Source: a bacterium
Lineage (GTDB): Bacteria; Patescibacteriota; Patescibacteriia; JAGPKW01
DNA length: 64,000 nt
Assembly: GCA_021780535.1 (NCBI GenBank)
Contig: JAJXYN010000009.1
Span: forward strand, 5,631-69,630
Direction of reading: 5' to 3'
The number at the start of each line of letters is the position of its first letter. The stretch's first letter is position 1. Shown here piece by piece: positions 46,006-53,016 of the stretch. The notes below the pieces were generated by a model, which saw only the letters and a program-made list of their open reading frames with translations, was not told where the DNA came from and searched no databases. The position numbers and the translations under genes were made by a program.

Positions 46006-46090
46006 GGAGAGCTGGCAGAGTGGTCGAATGCGACAGTCTTGAAAACTGTTATACCGCAAGGTATCAGGGGTTCGAATCCCTTGCTCTCCG
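46006..46090 (+). tRNA. tRNA-Ser (anticodon UGA), class II with long variable arm; CCA not encoded
   Basis: Manual fold: acceptor GGAGAGC/GCTCTCC, anticodon stem ACAGT/ACTGT, loop CTTGAAA (anticodon TGA), long variable arm TATACCGCAAGGTATC, T-loop TTCGAAT, discriminator G. Confidence 0.85.
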
Positions 46091-46136
46091 CCGTCAGGGG
46101 CGACCCCGAAGCGTCTATACGCTTTGTGGTGCTCAC

Positions 46137-46180
46137 AAAAAACAAAAAAACTATCAGATTTGATAGTTTTTTTGTTTTTT
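46137..46180. terminator. Long perfect AT-rich hairpin (20-bp stem), bidirectional terminator downstream of tRNA-Ser
   Basis: AAAAAACAAAAAAACTATCA-gatt-TGATAGTTTTTTTGTTTTTT. Confidence 0.7.
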
Positions 46181-46268
46181 ATTTCTCTAAGGTTCCTCAA
46201 TAAATTTTATCAAAATTTCTCGATATTCGAAATCTAGAAAATGCATAAAAATAAGAATAATTTATAAG

Positions 46269-47093
46269 TTAAAAATCTCTAAATCTTCTATTTTTATGAA
46301 TATGAAAAGAAAGATTAATTCCAGACTCTTTGCATAGATTTGAAAAAATATTTAATACCTCACTCCTTGTTAAATCAAACCAATCCACCAAGTCTCTGTT
46401 ATTTATGCAATAAGATTGTCTATCTTTGTTAAATGTATTATTGATATGTATTTCGTTGTTTTGTATAGCTAAAAAATATCTTTCTCTTATTGATCTTAAT
46501 AATTCGACAATAACTTCTAACTTACTTCTCCATATATCATTCTTTATATAAGATTTGCCATGTAATTGTTTTAGAATATTATTATCTCTATCTCTTTGAA
46601 CTCCAGTATTCAATGCAATTATAGTGTCTTCTATTGCTTTATCAAAAGCTTCCATAGACCCTTCTTGTTGAAAAACATCTTGGAATACTGGTCTATCAAA
46701 ACAGTCTGCATAAAATTTAATAAGCTCAATATCGTTGGTTATAATGTTATTTTTTGCATTTTCAATTTCATGCAATACCTTTTCTTCTGATATAATTTTC
46801 CATTTTTTTATTTCTTTTTCTGTATATCTTTTCTCGTCCCTATCTATCATAGAAGCACAATTAGAGCATAACCAGATACCATTTTCAAATGATTTACGTT
46901 CTTTTGAAGTTAGACTTTTATTATATCTTTTACCTCCTGGTGATGCTGCTGAAATATGAGAAGCTATACCAATGTTTGTAGTTTTGTCCGTAGATGGCCC
47001 TATTGTTAGTTTTTCACAACCAGGATTAGAACACCTATAACCAACTCTTTTTGCTAGTAGCTCTTTTGTTTTTTGGTTGAAATCATCTCTCAT
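46269..47093 (-). CDS. HNH-nuclease-domain protein (N-terminal HNH, C-terminal unknown domain)
   Basis: GYRCSNPGCEK … GIASHISAAS … ENGIWLCSNCASMIDRD: a Cx2C…H…N…Cx2C HNH-like zinc-finger nuclease motif, with the final His position replaced. 274 aa. Confidence 0.55.
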   Translation of the reverse strand: MRDDFNQKTKELLAKRVGYRCSNPGCEKLTIGPSTDKTTNIGIASHISAASPGGKRYNKSLTSKERKSFENGIWLCSNCASMIDRDEKRYTEKEIKKWKIISEEKVLHEIENAKNNIITNDIELIKFYADCFDRPVFQDVFQQEGSMEAFDKAIEDTIIALNTGVQRDRDNNILKQLHGKSYIKNDIWRSKLEVIVELLRSIRERYFLAIQNNEIHINNTFNKDRQSYCINNRDLVDWFDLTRSEVLNIFSNLCKESGINLSFHIHKNRRFRDF

Positions 47094-47183
47094 ATAAGTA
47101 TAATTTATTTACTGTTTTATTATATCATTTATTTTTTACTTGTGATATTTTTTAAATAATAAATAAACACTTAACTAAAAAAT

Positions 47184-47441
47184 ATGCAAAAAAATAAAGA
47201 TCATATTGCACTTAAATTTTTAACTGGCTCTAAAAACAATTTAGTAGATCAAAGCGAAATTTATGGTGGAGTTGAAATGAATGGTGAAAGTAATAAGATT
47301 AAAAGATCCAAAATAGATATTAAAAAAACAATACAAGAACATCCTATTAAAACTATTATTATAGGTTCAATAATAACTCTTACAATAACTATTATTGGAT
47401 CAGTTATTGGATTAATTATAGAATATACTTTTTTCAAATAA
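47184..47441 (+). CDS. Small tail-anchored membrane protein
   Basis: 85 aa, hydrophilic N-terminus, single C-terminal TM (IIIGSIITLTITIIGSVIGLII). Confidence 0.4.
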   Translation: MQKNKDHIALKFLTGSKNNLVDQSEIYGGVEMNGESNKIKRSKIDIKKTIQEHPIKTIIIGSIITLTITIIGSVIGLIIEYTFFK

Positions 47442-47585
47442 AATTAAACCTTTACTAAATTTATTTTCTTATACTTTATAATAAATTTATTTTATACTTA
47501 AAATGAAAACATTAATGCGACACTGGTTTCTCTTGATATGAAAATCTTCATCGTTTCTTCATTTTAATTTGATATAATTTTTAAT

Positions 47586-48164
47586 TTGCAAAATATGAAC
47601 TCTGATAAATATTTTATATCTCAAATAAAACCTGATGGGACAATAATTTCTCCAAATGATTGGTTAAAGAAAGTTGGGGCTTTTGTTGAAAATAGACAAT
47701 TAGCTTTACCACATGAATGTATACTCATTCCTTTATCTGCAGCAAGCAGAGCTGTTGAAATTTTTAATACAAGTACTGAATACACTCAAAAATTAGAATC
47801 TGCATTATTAATAGCTTTATCCGTAAGAGTTGCAGAAACTGCTTTTTATAATAAATTTGCTAAATGGTTCGAAGTTCAATCTCAAACAAAAATGTGTGAT
47901 CATTGCATAAGAAATAGTAAGGTTTTTAATAATGATGAAGTAAAAAAATACAGAAAACTTTGTAATGAAAAAATAATTCATGTAATGGAAAATCAATCTA
48001 TGATAAATCCTAATGATTTAATTTATGCAATAAATTATTACGATGAAGTTTTAAAATTACCACTTATAGATCCTATAAAAATTACTAGTGAATTTAAAAT
48101 AACTGTTTGCGATAAATGTTTAGTAAAAAATGGAATAATAAAACAAGATAAAAAAAAGAATTAA
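47586..48164 (+). CDS. Hypothetical Cys-pair (zinc-ribbon-like) protein
   Basis: 192 aa with CDHC and CDKC pairs about 60 residues apart. No family assignment. Confidence 0.45.
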   Translation: MQNMNSDKYFISQIKPDGTIISPNDWLKKVGAFVENRQLALPHECILIPLSAASRAVEIFNTSTEYTQKLESALLIALSVRVAETAFYNKFAKWFEVQSQTKMCDHCIRNSKVFNNDEVKKYRKLCNEKIIHVMENQSMINPNDLIYAINYYDEVLKLPLIDPIKITSEFKITVCDKCLVKNGIIKQDKKKN

Positions 48165-48370
48165 TTCTTAATTAAATTAATTTTTTTATCCTTCATAATA
48201 AATTTATTTTTAAACATACTCATAAATTCTCTTCTCTCATTTATTGAACCATGATTTAAAATAAATTTTGCATAATCTATTAAATCTACTTTTTTATCAT
48301 CCATATTTCTTTCTACATTATTTATTTTTACAATAAACATCTTTTGATCTTCTGCATCCATAATAAACAT
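48161..48370 (-). CDS. Small hypothetical protein (69 aa)
   Basis: ORF only. Directly downstream of the cyclase-like gene on the same strand. Confidence 0.3.
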   Translation of the reverse strand: MFIMDAEDQKMFIVKINNVERNMDDKKVDLIDYAKFILNHGSINERREFMSMFKNKFIMKDKKINLIKN

Positions 48371-48388
48371 ATTTACTGTGTATTACTA

Positions 48389-49246
48389 TTATTTATTATC
48401 ACTTTCTAATGCAAATTTCGCAACGATATCTTCAAAAGAATTAAAATCTATAGGCTTTCTAGGAATTAACTCATTATCATATCTAGGACACAAATTATTC
48501 TCATCATATATTGTTTTTAATAATTTTAAGGTATTTATATATTTCTCTGTTACAGCCTTTTTTGTTGGATCTTCTAAAATTTGATTGCATTTTTCACAAA
48601 ATAATAAAAACGAATCATTAAACGTTGCTCTTTCAGTTGGGTTTATAACATACCCCTTAATTGTGCCTTCATGTAATGGAATATTATATTCAACTATATG
48701 CTTTGACTTCTCAAGATTATAAAATGCATTTGGAAAATTTTTTTTAAATAACTCACCCATTTCGCTAGTAAAAGAAATGGCTATCCAAGATTGCTTACTT
48801 TCTAAATCATGTGCATCTAAGATAGCTTGGCCAACAATAAAATTAATATTTTTCGCAACGATTGGATTTCTGTTAACAACTTGTGTTGATATATCTCCTT
48901 TATGCCAGGAATATTCTCCAAAAGAAATTGCTCCTCTTATTGGGATTGGATTAAAGCCTGGTATTTGACATTTATAAAAATATTGATGATTTATTAACTG
49001 TATTGCCATTATGAAATTATAAAACCCTTTTTCACTATTTTCTATTAATCTTATTGCAATTGTATCAGAGTAGACCATAAACTCTAATTTTTCTTTCATA
49101 ACATCTGCAGTGAAAAACGAAGAAGTTATAACATGTGCATATTCATCTATCACAGATTGAATAGTGTTTAATTTTACATAATCCTTAAAACCTAACATGT
49201 CTAGAACTGCAATCGGTCCATTGTAAATTGGGATTGAGTTATTCAT
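48389..49246 (-). CDS. Class III nucleotidyl-cyclase-like (palm-domain) protein with a C-terminal Cys-containing extension
   Basis: IAVLDMLGFKDY resembles the V-L-F-A-D-I-x-G-F-T first metal-binding strand. YSDTIAI lies about 45 aa later (the GDxY-equivalent second Asp). PIRGAISFGEYSW aligns with R-I-G-I-H-T-G-x-V-x-x-G, and NFIVGQAILDAHDLES with G-D-T-V-N-x-A-x-R-x-E-S. The spacing of these blocks fits the adenylyl/guanylyl cyclase palm fold. Confidence 0.45.
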   Translation of the reverse strand: MNNSIPIYNGPIAVLDMLGFKDYVKLNTIQSVIDEYAHVITSSFFTADVMKEKLEFMVYSDTIAIRLIENSEKGFYNFIMAIQLINHQYFYKCQIPGFNPIPIRGAISFGEYSWHKGDISTQVVNRNPIVAKNINFIVGQAILDAHDLESKQSWIAISFTSEMGELFKKNFPNAFYNLEKSKHIVEYNIPLHEGTIKGYVINPTERATFNDSFLLFCEKCNQILEDPTKKAVTEKYINTLKLLKTIYDENNLCPRYDNELIPRKPIDFNSFEDIVAKFALESDNK

Positions 49247-49365
49247 TTTATTTTATTAATTAAAAAAATTAATTCCTATTAAACACTAATTAAATTGTAC
49301 CATAAAAAATTTAATTAGCATGAATAAAAATAATTGGGCTTTAGCTCAATTATTTTTATTTATAT

Positions 49366-50526
49366 TTAATCACCTTCCTCCGTATTATTATCCTCATTTC
49401 TATGTGAATCTTTATTGTTATTATTATCATTATTAACATTATCTAGACTTTGAACATTATTATCCTGACTCTGTTGATTGTTTTTTATTTCTTGTTGTTG
49501 CGCTTGCACGTTATCTGTATTTGTTTCTTGTTTTTTATTTTGTGCATTTTCTTGTGTCTTGTCTGTATTTTTTATTGTAGTAGAATTGTCGTTTTGATTA
49601 TTACTTTCTCCATTGTCTTGCTTGTTTGTTTTTTTAGTATCTTCTGACTTTATATCTTCTGGCTTTACATCTTCTTTTTTAACATTTTCTTGTTTATTAA
49701 TATTTTCATTTTTTATATCTTCTTGTTTTTTATCAATATTTTGTTTTTCTGGACTATTATTTTCTACATTACTATCAATATTTTCTTGTTTATTGTCTGG
49801 ATTATTTTCAATATTTTTATCTGAATTTATTGTGTTGTTATTTTCTGTAATACTAGGCTCTATCTGATCTATAACTTTCAATGTTTCTTTTAGAATATCT
49901 TGATTAATCTTTTTATCTCCACTTAAAATCTTTTTTTCTTCTTTTATTTTATTAAATACTTCTTTTTGTATTGTTTTTTTTGTTTCAAATATTTTTGTAG
50001 CTTCTTTTTTTTGTTCTATATTTGTTATATTTACTATTTCTTTTTGTATTTTATTATTTATTTTTGATATTTCTAATATTGTATTTGCTATTGCAGAATT
50101 GTATTTTGTCGTATTATCGTCTGCATATGCCACATTTATCAAAGAAAATTGTTGATCTATCTTATTAAAATTTTTTGATTTTAAATATTCTATTTCTGCT
50201 ACTCTTTTGTCTAATAATACAGAATAATATTTTACTTTTGACAAACCTGTTTTTGTTCCAGAGATAAAATTTTCTAAACCTGTTTTTACTCCATAAAGAG
50301 CACTCCCATATACTACTGAACTTGAATTATATGAATATGCAGTAACTGATGTTAATGTAAAAATCAAAGCAAAACTAACCATGGCTGGCTTTAAAATATA
50401 ATTTAATTTAAAAATATTCAAATGCTTAAAATACAATCTAAATAATATCCTAAGACTTCTTATTGGACTTAGATTTTTTTTTGATATTTTATTTAATTTT
50501 TCTATTAACTCAATTTCTTGTTTCAT
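49366..50526 (-). CDS. Putative anti-sigma factor: single-TM protein with a long Asn/Gln/Lys/Glu-rich low-complexity tail
   Basis: Overlaps the end of the ECF sigma gene by 17 nt. TM helix (AMVSFALIFTLTSVTAYSY). The C-terminal 150 aa is extreme low complexity (N, Q, K, E, D). Confidence 0.45.
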   Translation of the reverse strand: MKQEIELIEKLNKISKKNLSPIRSLRILFRLYFKHLNIFKLNYILKPAMVSFALIFTLTSVTAYSYNSSSVVYGSALYGVKTGLENFISGTKTGLSKVKYYSVLLDKRVAEIEYLKSKNFNKIDQQFSLINVAYADDNTTKYNSAIANTILEISKINNKIQKEIVNITNIEQKKEATKIFETKKTIQKEVFNKIKEEKKILSGDKKINQDILKETLKVIDQIEPSITENNNTINSDKNIENNPDNKQENIDSNVENNSPEKQNIDKKQEDIKNENINKQENVKKEDVKPEDIKSEDTKKTNKQDNGESNNQNDNSTTIKNTDKTQENAQNKKQETNTDNVQAQQQEIKNNQQSQDNNVQSLDNVNNDNNNNKDSHRNEDNNTEEGD

Positions 50527-51043
50527 TTTTATTGTTAATAATTTCTTTCAATTTTGTTAATGCTCTAGATATTCCAGTTCTTATTGATGTTTTGTTTTTC
50601 CCTAATATTGCTTCCATCTCTTCATAATCTAGATCATCAAAAAATTTTAAAGCTATTAAATATTGATCTGTTTTGTTTAATTCTTTTATGCTTTTTTTTA
50701 TGTCTTCTGATCTTATTTTAGAGTCTATTAAATTATTTAGAAATTCTTTATTGTCTGCTATTGTTATTTTACTATCTATAGCTTCTTCTAAATCATCTAT
50801 TATTAATAACTCTTTATTTTTTCTGAAATAGTCAATTAAATGATTGTGCGCTATTCTATATATCCACACTTTAAGATTACCCTCATTTTCTAAGGAATCT
50901 ATTTTTTCTATTACTTTTTCAAAGATGTCTTCTGTTAAATCTTCTGATAATTCTTTATCAAAATTTGTTCTGAATAAAAAATAATTAAATATTTTATCTT
51001 TGAATGTATTATATATTTCTGTAAATTTAGAGAAATCAGACAT
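50510..51043 (-). CDS. ECF-type sigma-70 family RNA polymerase sigma factor
   Basis: Region 2 (VWIYRIAHNHLIDYFRK) and region 4 HTH (DLDYEEMEAILGKNKTSIRTGISRALTKLK). Confidence 0.8.
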   Translation of the reverse strand: MSDFSKFTEIYNTFKDKIFNYFLFRTNFDKELSEDLTEDIFEKVIEKIDSLENEGNLKVWIYRIAHNHLIDYFRKNKELLIIDDLEEAIDSKITIADNKEFLNNLIDSKIRSEDIKKSIKELNKTDQYLIALKFFDDLDYEEMEAILGKNKTSIRTGISRALTKLKEIINNKNETRN

Positions 51044-51309
51044 AATTATTTTTTCTTAAATTAAGAGACGTATTACTTAATACTTTATTACATTTTTGTA
51101 TAAAAATCTACTGCTGTGTAATATATTTTTAAATTAATCGTCTCTATATATACAAAAATAAAAAATTGCTTGCTTAATAATAGGTTTGCAATATAAGCTC
51201 GTAAAGAGCTTTTTTAATTTATGTATTTTAAAAATGTAACACTTTTTTAAAATATACGTCTCTATATAAGTAAGAATTAAATAACTAAATAAATATTAAT
51301 CATAAATAT

Positions 51310-52524
51310 ATGAGTAAAAAATTACCTGTCATATTATCATCTATGGCATTATTGGCTTCAACAACTTCTGTCCCATTTGTATTTGCTAGTACAAACTATA
51401 CTGATGGCTCATACTCTGCAGATGGATCATACAATAGCCCAAAAGGACTTGAAAACGTTAATTTATCAGTAAAATTATTAAGCAATAAAATAACTGATGC
51501 AACTTTTACAGCAAATGCTAGCAATGGAACAAGTCAATACTATGATGATTTGTTTATAAAAGGATTTAAAGATCAAGTTGTTGGTAAAAATATTGATGAG
51601 GTTAACTTAAGTGTTGTAAATGGTGCATCTCTAACACCAATTGGCTTTAATGATGCTTTATCAAAAATAAAACAACAAGCTTTAGTTGGAGGAGCTACTA
51701 CTACAAGCACAACAAGCACTAATACCTCTAATACGTCCACAGCCACTACAGTAGATACTAGTACTAACACTAGCACTAATACTAATACCGATATAAATAA
51801 AGAAGGAGAAGATGGCTCTGATAGTGAGGATAATAATAATAGAGAGAGTAATAGAGAAAGTGAGAAAAAACAAAAAGAGAGTAATAGAGAAAGTGAGAAA
51901 AAACAAAAAGAGAGTGACAAAGAGAATTTAAAACAAGAACAAGAACAAGAACAAAATAATGAACAAGAACAACAAGATAATGAAGATAAAAATATTACAT
52001 CTCAATTAAATAGTGTAAATAATTTTGATTATATTAAATCTATAAAAATACAAAACAATGATATTAATAAATATAGTGATGTTGTTACAGTATTGAATAG
52101 TTTTAAAGATGCTTTGACAAAAATAAAAGATGCTGCAAATGTACAAGCTACTGATACATCTACACTAACAGACACCGAAAAAGCTTTATTAAATAAATTA
52201 GTATCTCAAAATAAAAACAATTTTGATACTACAAGTAAAAACATAGATGAATTAAATTCTTATATTGACCAATATGTAACATTATTAACACCACTTGCTG
52301 ATGCTAATATATCAAAATATATAAAAGGATTTTTAATTTCTGAATTAAATAATATAAAAGATTCTATAAAATCTGAACAAGATTTGGTTAAAGAAGCTAT
52401 AAATTCTGTAATTTATACACCTATACCTTCTCCAGTAATCACAACTCCAACTAGTACAACAACTCCAACTAGTACAGCAACTCCAACTAGTACAGCAACT
52501 CCAACTAGTACAGCAACTAATTAA
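51310..52524 (+). CDS. Secreted protein with an N-terminal FMN-binding (FMN_bind)-like domain and Ser/Thr-rich and charged tandem-repeat regions
   Basis: Signal peptide. DGSYSADGSY…VNLSVKLLSNKITDATF…VVNGASLTPIGFNDALSKIKQQAL matches the DGxYxG…GKI…V.GAT.T..A FMN_bind pattern. Then T/S-rich linker, RESNRESEKKQKES x2 and TPTSTA x4 repeats. Confidence 0.5.
   Translation: MSKKLPVILSSMALLASTTSVPFVFASTNYTDGSYSADGSYNSPKGLENVNLSVKLLSNKITDATFTANASNGTSQYYDDLFIKGFKDQVVGKNIDEVNLSVVNGASLTPIGFNDALSKIKQQALVGGATTTSTTSTNTSNTSTATTVDTSTNTSTNTNTDINKEGEDGSDSEDNNNRESNRESEKKQKESNRESEKKQKESDKENLKQEQEQEQNNEQEQQDNEDKNITSQLNSVNNFDYIKSIKIQNNDINKYSDVVTVLNSFKDALTKIKDAANVQATDTSTLTDTEKALLNKLVSQNKNNFDTTSKNIDELNSYIDQYVTLLTPLADANISKYIKGFLISELNNIKDSIKSEQDLVKEAINSVIYTPIPSPVITTPTSTTTPTSTATPTSTATPTSTATN
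51843..51915 (+). repeat. 36-bp tandem duplication inside the surface-protein gene (encodes ESNRESEKKQKE x2)
   Basis: gagagtaatagagaaagtgagaaaaaacaaaaa appears twice in tandem. An 18-bp x4 array (actccaactagtacagca) also lies at 52444..52518. Confidence 0.7.
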
Positions 52525-52545: not shown

Positions 52546-53016
52546 ATGAAAAAAATTTTAGCTACATTAATCATCCCAGCATTTCTATTTTCTTCATCTG
52601 CATTTGCACTTGGTAGTACTGCAAATACAAATAATACAACAACGCAAACAAAAACTGCAGTGAATGAAAAAGTTTTAAAAACAGAACTATTAAAACTTGG
52701 AAAAACTGGAGTAGTGATTAAAAAAGATATTAAAAAAGATTTGACAAATACTAAAACACAGAACATAAAGAACAAACAAAAGAAAAATATTATTGCAAAG
52801 CAACAAAAAGTTAAAGCAACAAAAAAAACCAGTAATGTAAAAGCTTCTACAAACACAAAGCAACAAAAAGTTAAAGCAACAAAGAAAACCAGTAATGTAA
52901 AAGCTTCTACAAACACAAAGCAACAAAAAGTTAAAGCAACAAAGAAAACCAGTAATGTAAAAGCTTCTACAAACAAATCTGTAAATAAAAAAATTACTCC
53001 TGTTATTAAAAAATAA
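52546..53016 (+). CDS. Secreted lysine-rich protein with three perfect 20-aa tandem repeats
   Basis: Signal peptide (…SSAFALG) then KQQKVKATKKTSNVKASTNT x3. Highly basic. Confidence 0.5.
   Translation: MKKILATLIIPAFLFSSSAFALGSTANTNNTTTQTKTAVNEKVLKTELLKLGKTGVVIKKDIKKDLTNTKTQNIKNKQKKNIIAKQQKVKATKKTSNVKASTNTKQQKVKATKKTSNVKASTNTKQQKVKATKKTSNVKASTNKSVNKKITPVIKK
52798..52975 (+). repeat. 60-bp x3 near-perfect tandem repeat (coding)
   Basis: Units aligned at 52801/52861/52921 with one substitution (aaaaaaaacc versus aagaaaacc). Confidence 0.85.

Follow-up and report, generated by a model that had tools for sequence, protein, structure and literature searches.

A solo cyclase-fold protein and a Cap5-type HNH nuclease beside tRNA-Ser in a Patescibacteriota genome: probably unrelated accessory genes rather than one signaling system

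Do five short genes lying between a tRNA gene and a core operon form one nucleotide-based defense system, or are they separate genes that share a site? The question arises in a 64,000-nt stretch of DNA from a Patescibacteriota genome (assembly GCA_021780535.1, contig JAJXYN010000009.1, positions 5,631 to 69,630; hereafter the window, to which coordinates refer), where such a block separates tRNA-Ser(UGA) from an operon encoding an extracytoplasmic function (ECF) sigma factor. A first-pass annotation had proposed that a 274-aa HNH nuclease (46269-47093, − strand) and a 285-aa protein resembling class III nucleotidyl cyclases (48389-49246, − strand) act together with small partners, as in Pycsar (pyrimidine cyclase system for antiphage resistance) or CBASS (a system for cyclic oligonucleotide-based antiphage signaling), within an accessory island. 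We found the five open reading frames (ORFs), the tRNA and the motifs of the 285-aa protein where they had been placed, and both fold assignments were upheld, while the single module was not supported by comparison with other genomes. On balance, we consider it probable that the block is a mosaic of unrelated solo accessory genes between tRNA-Ser and the core ECF sigma operon, two of which are autonomous, horizontally mobile and independent single-gene conflict or defense modules. What is new here is an unnamed cyclase-fold superfamily.

The 285-aa protein has a divergent palm fold of the class III cyclase homology domain (CHD) type, with the elements in the order beta-alpha-alpha-beta-beta-alpha-beta. 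Its motifs, VLDMLGF (residues 14-20), YSDT (59-62), RGAISFGE (104-111) and GQAILDAHDLES (139-150), coincide with invariant columns in the alignments of its own family and of the superfamily, and its C-terminal ~80 residues form a three-helix extension bearing a near-invariant K235. In a superfamily alignment of 94 members sharing 20-55% identity, where mean column identity is as low as 12%, D16, D61 and G139 are invariant (94/94), and L18, G19, F20, S60, R104, G105, E149, W154, G156, P190 and K235 are each conserved in at least 90% of the members. D16 and D61, 45 residues apart, are the putative metal ligands of a predicted two-metal site that appears intact.

This superfamily is large. A word-indexed search of 5.8 billion proteins returned 22 clusters at 90% identity, all of them unnamed, and an exhaustive hidden Markov model (HMM) search of 1.84 billion representatives returned at least 1,442 clusters (50% identity) at E ≤ 1e-3, including 247 at E ≤ 1e-10. 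The clusters are mostly 240-270 aa long and match over their full length. The family occurs in 2 of ~185,000 species representatives and is scattered over phyla. No Pfam, NCBIfam or PADLOC model matches the 285-aa protein; Pfam and NCBIfam recognize none of the 94 superfamily members, and PADLOC none of the 10 tested. The class III cyclase model PF00211 in particular matches neither the 285-aa protein at E ≤ 1 nor any of the 94 members at E ≤ 0.05. The sole PHROG match of the protein is at noise level (E 0.068), and superfamily members from prophages fall in phrog_23933 and phrog_21097, both labeled “unknown function.” Searches of the PDB by sequence, with the protein and with the family profile, gave nothing significant, and literature searches for a solo cyclase-fold defense gene, together with two large defense-discovery papers, yielded nothing matching. 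The superfamily is thus large, unnamed and not modeled by Pfam, NCBIfam or PADLOC, and a worthwhile uncharacterized defense candidate.

We then compared the superfamily profile with known cyclases. Against cyclases in the PDB it reached E values of 0.5-2.3 at best. Against a profile of genuine class III cyclases, which were plasmid-derived, collected via a consensus bait and all annotated as adenylate or guanylate cyclase, hhalign gave an E value of 1.2e-4 and a probability of 55% over 125 columns. In this alignment D16 falls on the first metal Asp (“FaD.vGFt”), D61 on the second (“iGD”) and R104 on the Arg of “RIGI,” while G139, A145 and E149 align with G..VN.A.R.E. In agreement with the first-pass annotation, D16 and D61 are therefore in register with the cyclase metal ligands, as far as profile-profile alignment and the invariance of both residues can indicate. 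The same comparison and the 94-member alignment show that the Asn of class III enzymes that binds the ribose and stabilizes the transition state (in GDTVNxAxR, helix alpha4) is replaced by V, I or L at position 143, that position 147, aligned with the transition-state Arg, is variable (E/K/D), and that the substrate-specifying Lys has no counterpart in the superfamily. Hence, the 285-aa protein has the cyclase fold but lacks both the profile match and the Asn/Arg pair that mark class III membership.

The 274-aa protein is a solo HNH (beta-beta-alpha-Me) nuclease of the Cap5/SPARHA/Shedu type. Residues 1-125 form the HNH domain, with a beta-beta-alpha fold, catalytic His46, structural Asn71, a Cys4 zinc site (C21, C26, C76 and C79), and D84 and D86. 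The motif read by the first-pass annotation stands for H46, N71 and C76-x2-C79, which are conserved in the family, and needs correction in the first Cys pair, which is Cx4C (C21, C26) rather than Cx2C. Among PADLOC models, residues 1-125 match PDC-M68A (1.6e-26), CBASS endonuclease effectors (5.5e-17), SAVED-HNH and SduA; the match to PDC-M68A, a family on which we found no paper, is limited to positions 1-127 of the 253 in the profile. By sequence, the closest PDB entries are 9OM4 (2.7e-7), from the SPARHA short-Argonaute systems, where it serves as HNH effector (PMC12738770), and Cap5 (7rwm). Residues 126-274 form a strongly conserved helical domain, in which many residues of the C-terminal half are invariant across phyla, and whose structural matches are generic helical bundles only, not SAVED. 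Neither the 285-aa nor the 274-aa protein matches a known defense system as a whole. At 50-59% identity the HNH family comprises 1,489 clusters, distributed over Bacillota, Chloroflexota and other phyla, and it is found on viral contigs as well; it has no recurrent neighbor and is solo in 7 distinct contexts.

The genomic company of the cyclase-fold gene shows an association with defense islands and prophages. In three Bacteroidota loci (L005; L015, Maribellus; L016, Tangfeifania), it lies in a BREX (bacteriophage exclusion) locus in the order brxA-brxB-brxC-(AAA_14/DUF4143 ATPase)-cyclase-fold gene, with BrxC proteins 71-73% identical and the loci syntenic. The ATPase gene abuts the cyclase-fold gene in L005 (4663-6000) and L016 (6663-8000), and was rejected as an obligate partner because decay has left only a 33-aa remnant of it in L015 (7758-8000), where the cyclase-fold gene is intact. 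Elsewhere, the gene lies near a Type ISP restriction-modification enzyme, UvrD, DUF6602 and HicB (L008/L009), beside GIY-YIG, DUF4160 and an ATPase_2 ATPase (L006/L007), next to DUF4145 (L017), near a VapBC-like pair recognized by sequence motifs only (L072), and near a DNA methyltransferase motif (L073). A HEPN domain was considered for the C-terminal extension of P0007, in L006/L007, and is not established, the HEPN_AbiU2 match reaching only E 0.024. About 23 nonredundant loci in prophages or viruses hold members of the broader clade, whose neighbors are serine recombinases, Cro/CI-type repressors, structural genes or a DNA methylase. An all-against-all comparison of neighbors in the family found nothing shared beyond the syntenic BREX loci. 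No partner recurs in the 8 family contexts or the 23 prophage contexts, and in none of the contexts is there a recurring effector that senses nucleotides. Such a profile fits a self-contained accessory or defense gene that mobile elements and defense islands carry.

Some members carry the cyclase-fold domain fused to TPR, Zn-ribbon or DUF433 domains. On the Bacillus wiedmannii megaplasmid p536 (L108, 6413-7729), the 438-aa protein WP_215559167.1 joins an N-terminal DUF262/ParB-like region, assigned from its RefSeq label and the motifs “QR..W” and “DG..R,” to a full cyclase-fold domain (hhalign E 1.8e-38); an AAA ATPase and a protein with a DNA/RNA helicase domain are encoded nearby. In a distant clade on IMG/VR proviral contigs (L088, 496-2300; L089, 4912-6630; L104, 4934-6693), the gene directly upstream of, and translationally coupled to, the cyclase-fold gene encodes a ParA-like ATPase of ~350-370 aa (AAA_31/CbiA); the pair is possibly a two-gene unit distinct from the solo family of the window.

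Is the block an island at a tRNA hotspot, as had been supposed? The left landmark, tRNA-Ser(UGA) with anticodon tga (46006-46092, + strand; ARAGORN; Rfam RF00005, 58 bits), is followed by a GC-rich hairpin and then a perfect 20-bp stem with a T-run (46093-46180, + strand; fold energy −41.9 kcal/mol, z = −8.0; terminator scan; inverted repeat I11). The 44 GC-rich nucleotides after the tRNA, considered as an attachment (att) site or tRNA remnant, were discarded as such since they fold as this hairpin and the tRNA's own terminator. We found no direct repeat derived from the tRNA 3′ end at the locus, no GC or skew anomaly of the block and, as the first-pass annotation had stated, no integrase, transposase or phage gene in or adjoining it. 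Comparison of the tRNA-Ser flanks among contigs of the same species revealed the same five genes in all spanning contigs and one alternative right junction. Coming from the sigma side, a contig of GCA_027355865.1 (L029; DAIEHF010000006.1) agrees with the window as far as 49319 and no further, a position at the inner foot of a hairpin that follows the 386-aa gene of the sigma operon; beyond this point, 280 nt of unique sequence (11723-12002 of L029) hold a new ORF encoding MITIEEYRKGSETAKKMTDEECQKIIELQDKFADGCFDIWIRKLRKERFELNK. Another contig from this assembly begins at 49374 and extends into the cyclase-fold gene. The two contigs point to a co-occurring allele with different content, with 49319 as the right boundary of a variable segment. 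No related genome was found in JGI metagenomes via the tRNA-flanking 197-aa protein, so that neither an empty-site allele nor an alternative left junction was recovered. The island proposal is therefore left with the junction at 49319, which hints weakly in its favor, and without the att repeat and GC shift.

Two further features of the block were noted. Six contigs from four samples (two left/right pairs and two singles) end at 47327-47398, inside the ORF for an 85-aa protein. Although suggestive of a variant junction, these ends were not taken as one: they lie in AT-rich, low-complexity sequence coding for the hydrophobic tail of that protein and the left and right contigs abut, so that they are probably assembly artifacts. 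In addition, the gene for a 192-aa protein is flanked by the two copies of a direct repeat of 58 nt, which are 83% identical (47436-47493 and 48153-48210); the repeat could be the trace of an insertion of this gene, or reflect similar AT-rich terminator regions.

We next weighed whether the block could be one Pycsar- or CBASS-like system, in which an infection-induced second messenger would activate the HNH protein, the tail-anchored 85-aa protein and/or the Zn-ribbon-like 192-aa protein. The confirmed cyclase fold, an HNH domain whose clade includes the CBASS effector Cap5, and the adjacency of the five genes in every spanning contig of the species all speak for it. Outside the species, however, the association disappears. 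The genes for the HNH, 85-aa transmembrane, 192-aa and 69-aa proteins occur in none of 8 other cyclase-family contexts (blastp and an all-against-all comparison of neighbors; the HNH gene also by HMM), and HMM searches found a cyclase-superfamily gene at none of ~42 HNH-family loci. The closest foreign cyclase-fold gene (L070), in an organism of 32% GC and with different flanks, is 84% identical to the window at the nucleotide level only over 48377-49249. This homology covers the ORF and a few bases only and is thus the footprint of a single-gene transfer; it stops at 48377, short of the 69-aa ORF, which places that ORF outside the transferred cassette. Phyletic distribution and neighborhood are unrelated from gene to gene, and relatives of the 192-aa protein sit in glycosyltransferase operons. 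Profile libraries detect no SAVED, CARF or CNB domain in the five proteins, and by structural comparison the C-terminal domain of the HNH protein is a helical bundle and none of these three, the three small proteins not having been modeled. Nor did a receptor for cyclic nucleoside monophosphates (cNMPs) come to light in the block, to which the screen for one was confined. A Pycsar locus, with PycC beside a cNMP-binding effector, is not what we see, as the five proteins are without a match to CNB, TIR or the Pycsar models of PADLOC; nor is a CBASS locus, as the block holds no CD-NTase and the 274-aa protein matches Cap5 models over its HNH part only. PADLOC finds no system-level match, and the genes lie on alternating strands with their own intergenic regions and no operon structure. 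A single system is therefore disfavored, and we regard it as very unlikely.

Two other explanations accept separate genes and question their role. The 285-aa protein might be a dead or noncyclase nucleotide binder, for instance a pseudo-cyclase sensor or regulator serving neighboring systems such as BREX, similar to the ATP-binding CHD 6YII. The absence of the canonical Asn/Arg and Lys fits this, as does the embedding of the gene directly after brxC in three related genomes, yet the retention of both metal Asp residues in 94/94 members at 12% per-column identity is the hallmark of a functional two-metal site, BREX is one of at least six distinct contexts, and the gene outlasts the decay of the adjoining ATPase in L015; we therefore hold this to be unlikely, if worth keeping in mind. 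Rather less probable still is that the block is ordinary lineage-specific core, with a housekeeping cAMP/cGMP enzyme and a selfish or homing-type HNH gene without a defense role. Average GC, the lack of an att repeat, the conserved order within the species and a homologue flanked by metabolic genes (L010) would suit such a view. It is difficult to reconcile with the rarity and scatter of the family among species representatives, the single-gene footprint of horizontal transfer, the prophage and defense-island contexts, the lack of a detected receptor within the block as delimited above, the alternative junction in a co-occurring strain, and the conserved 150-aa nonnuclease domain of the HNH family, unlike minimal homing HNH genes. 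The mosaic of solo accessory genes has its own difficulties. Three class III residues are missing from the family (the Asn that binds ribose, the Arg of the transition state and the Lys that specifies the substrate), which makes cyclase activity proper uncertain and noncatalytic nucleotide binding possible; the BREX loci, being syntenic, count as one context and not three; the L010 homologue lies among housekeeping sugar-metabolism genes; and the block does not stand out as foreign by its GC content (0.285 for the HNH gene, the 87th percentile of the window, and 0.280 for the cyclase-fold gene, the 82nd). Moreover, the five genes are found in one order and at 99-100% identity in every same-species strain contig spanning the region, so that, on comparative data alone, the genes may still co-function within this lineage.

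Folds, conserved residues, solo mobility and the association with defense islands and prophages are shown; for catalysis, trigger and antiphage phenotype of the two proteins we infer the following scheme, in which each would work by itself. In the HNH protein, the conserved helical C-terminal domain most likely restrains the nuclease until a trigger is sensed, upon which DNA would be degraded; by analogy with Cap5 and SPARHA, release may go through oligomerization. The 285-aa protein, by analogy with its structural relatives, would form a head-to-tail dimer and bind a nucleoside triphosphate (NTP) through two divalent metals on D16 and D61 and through Arg104. It might then carry out nucleotidyl transfer, cyclization or a related reaction with a noncanonical active site, in which E149, Q152, W154 and K235 may make up for the missing Asn/Arg pair. 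Given that no receptor or effector gene travels with the cyclase-fold gene, its output would have to act directly, by NTP consumption or as a toxic or inhibitory nucleotide, or via a generic component of the host or of a partner system such as BREX.

A bolder version, which we offer tentatively and consider doubtful as it stands, is that the 285-aa protein stands for a class of single-gene modules not described before, directed against phages or other mobile genetic elements. It would be a rewired palm enzyme, built on two Asp, one Arg and a C-terminal Lys, that upon infection consumes NTPs or makes a noncanonical nucleotide which is itself the effector, with no receptor; placed behind DUF262, TPR and Zn-ribbon sensors, and within BREX loci, the same domain would supply the output. 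Should its members prove to be active enzymes with a role in defense, the superfamily would extend the nucleotide-based immune repertoire by a large branch that has so far gone unnamed. Unlike in Pycsar, CBASS and type III CRISPR signaling, there would be no cognate receptor gene, implying effector-less nucleotide chemistry or cross-talk with systems such as BREX. The superfamily also lends itself to testing how much of class III cyclase chemistry is feasible without the canonical Asn/Arg pair. Finally, the locus carries a caution for annotation: a cyclase fold beside a Cap5-type nuclease resembled a system, and comparative evidence says otherwise.

Three small ORFs complete the block, which lies in a very AT-rich window (25.3% GC). 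Scans of the five proteins against Pfam, NCBIfam, PADLOC and PHROG recognize the HNH domain alone, and no block gene has a housekeeping homologue in Pfam or NCBIfam, as had been noted before. The 85-aa protein (47184-47441, + strand) ends in a tail-anchor-like hydrophobic helix, IKTIIIGSIITLTITIIGSVIGLIIEYTFF; it has no library match above noise and was seen, among the loci examined, only in same-species contigs, no database-wide homology search having been made. The 192-aa protein (47586-48164, + strand; gene callers prefer a 189-aa start) has a conserved CxHC...C...H...CxxC pattern and belongs to a lineage-restricted family of 4 clusters, with divergent relatives in glycosyltransferase/methyltransferase operons. 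A similarity between its residues 103-192 and residues 75-172 of the HNH protein (blastp E 0.004, in a tiny database) was taken as chance. The 69-aa ORF (48161-48370, − strand) lies 18 bp downstream of the cyclase-fold gene and has no relative in the loci examined, again with no database-wide homology search made.

Both flanks are core. On the left lie RecG and the 197-aa protein, which is DUF5673-like. On the right, the ECF sigma factor (50510-51043; Pfam Sigma70_r2 and Sigma70_r4_2) overlaps the 386-aa protein (49366-50526), both on the − strand, and this flank is identical in all strain contigs; the hairpin 3′ of the 386-aa gene (49320-49363, − strand; inverted repeat I15, 21 nt, 90% complementary) is probably its terminator. 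Divergently from the sigma gene runs the gene for a secreted, Thr-rich 404-aa protein (51310-52524, + strand). In the region between the two (51067-51260), we observed three copies of an ECF-type promoter-like motif, TGTAAY-N14-19-CGTC, one directed toward the sigma gene and two toward the 404-aa gene; the window holds five copies against 0.25 expected, and the intergenic copies look like an autoregulated ECF regulon. The sigma/anti-sigma pair DdvS/DdvA controls a CBASS-CRISPR island (PMC11506125). Control of the cyclase-fold gene by the upstream ECF sigma/anti-sigma-like pair was nonetheless rejected here, as the motif is enriched only in the region between the sigma gene and the 404-aa gene and does not occur upstream of the cyclase-fold gene. 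Three neighboring proteins contain extended stretches of low complexity or of tandem repeats (49366-50526, Asn/Lys/Gln-rich; 51310-52524, Thr-rich; 52546-53016, with a ~20-aa repeat, KQQKVKATKKTSNVKASTNT), which suggests that the ECF sigma factor governs a set of variable proteins, surface-bound or secreted.

How do the two main proteins compare with known systems? Like class III cyclases (PF00211, PycC included), the 285-aa protein places one Asp where beta1 ends and another in the beta2-beta3 hairpin, keeps the Arg at the start of beta4, and is in register by profile-profile alignment. The Asp-Asp spacing is 45 compared with 44 in the Pycsar cyclases EaPycC (D102/D146) and AnPycC (D62/D106) (PMC11224242). 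In contrast with these enzymes, its family lacks the Asn, Arg and Lys and adds the C-terminal three-helix extension with K235, and unlike in Pycsar the gene is solo, with no adjoining effector of PycTM or PycTIR type. With GGDEF diguanylate cyclases the family shares an RRM-like palm, two acidic metal ligands and the absence of the class III Asn/Arg pair, and it differs in having SD[ST] in place of the GG(D/E)EF hairpin motif. Palm proteins of mCpol/Cas10 type, Panoptes and Hailong are the comparators for minimal palm-domain defense enzymes; relative to the mCpol/Cas10 type, the cyclase-fold gene has no conserved transmembrane or CARF effector partner. As for the 274-aa protein, it keeps the catalytic His, the Asn and the zinc-site Cys of Cap5 (HNH-SAVED), the SPARHA HNH (9OM4) and PDC-M68A, whereas its C-terminal half is neither SAVED nor the APAZ/Argonaute-associated region, and no CD-NTase, Argonaute or other partner lies near its gene.

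In the three Bacteroidota genomes, the cyclase-fold gene is placed like a BREX accessory gene, with brxC on one side and the remainder of the locus on the other, and a 2026 survey of BREX (PMC12839542) makes no mention of a cyclase or palm protein. Set against BREX and the DUF262 proteins of GmrSD/BrxU type, the domain is related neither in sequence nor in fold to known BREX components or DUF1524. In GmrSD, the DUF1524 nuclease lies behind DUF262. The Bacillus megaplasmid fusion places the cyclase-fold domain behind its DUF262/ParB-like region, at the very position that the DUF1524 nuclease holds in GmrSD.

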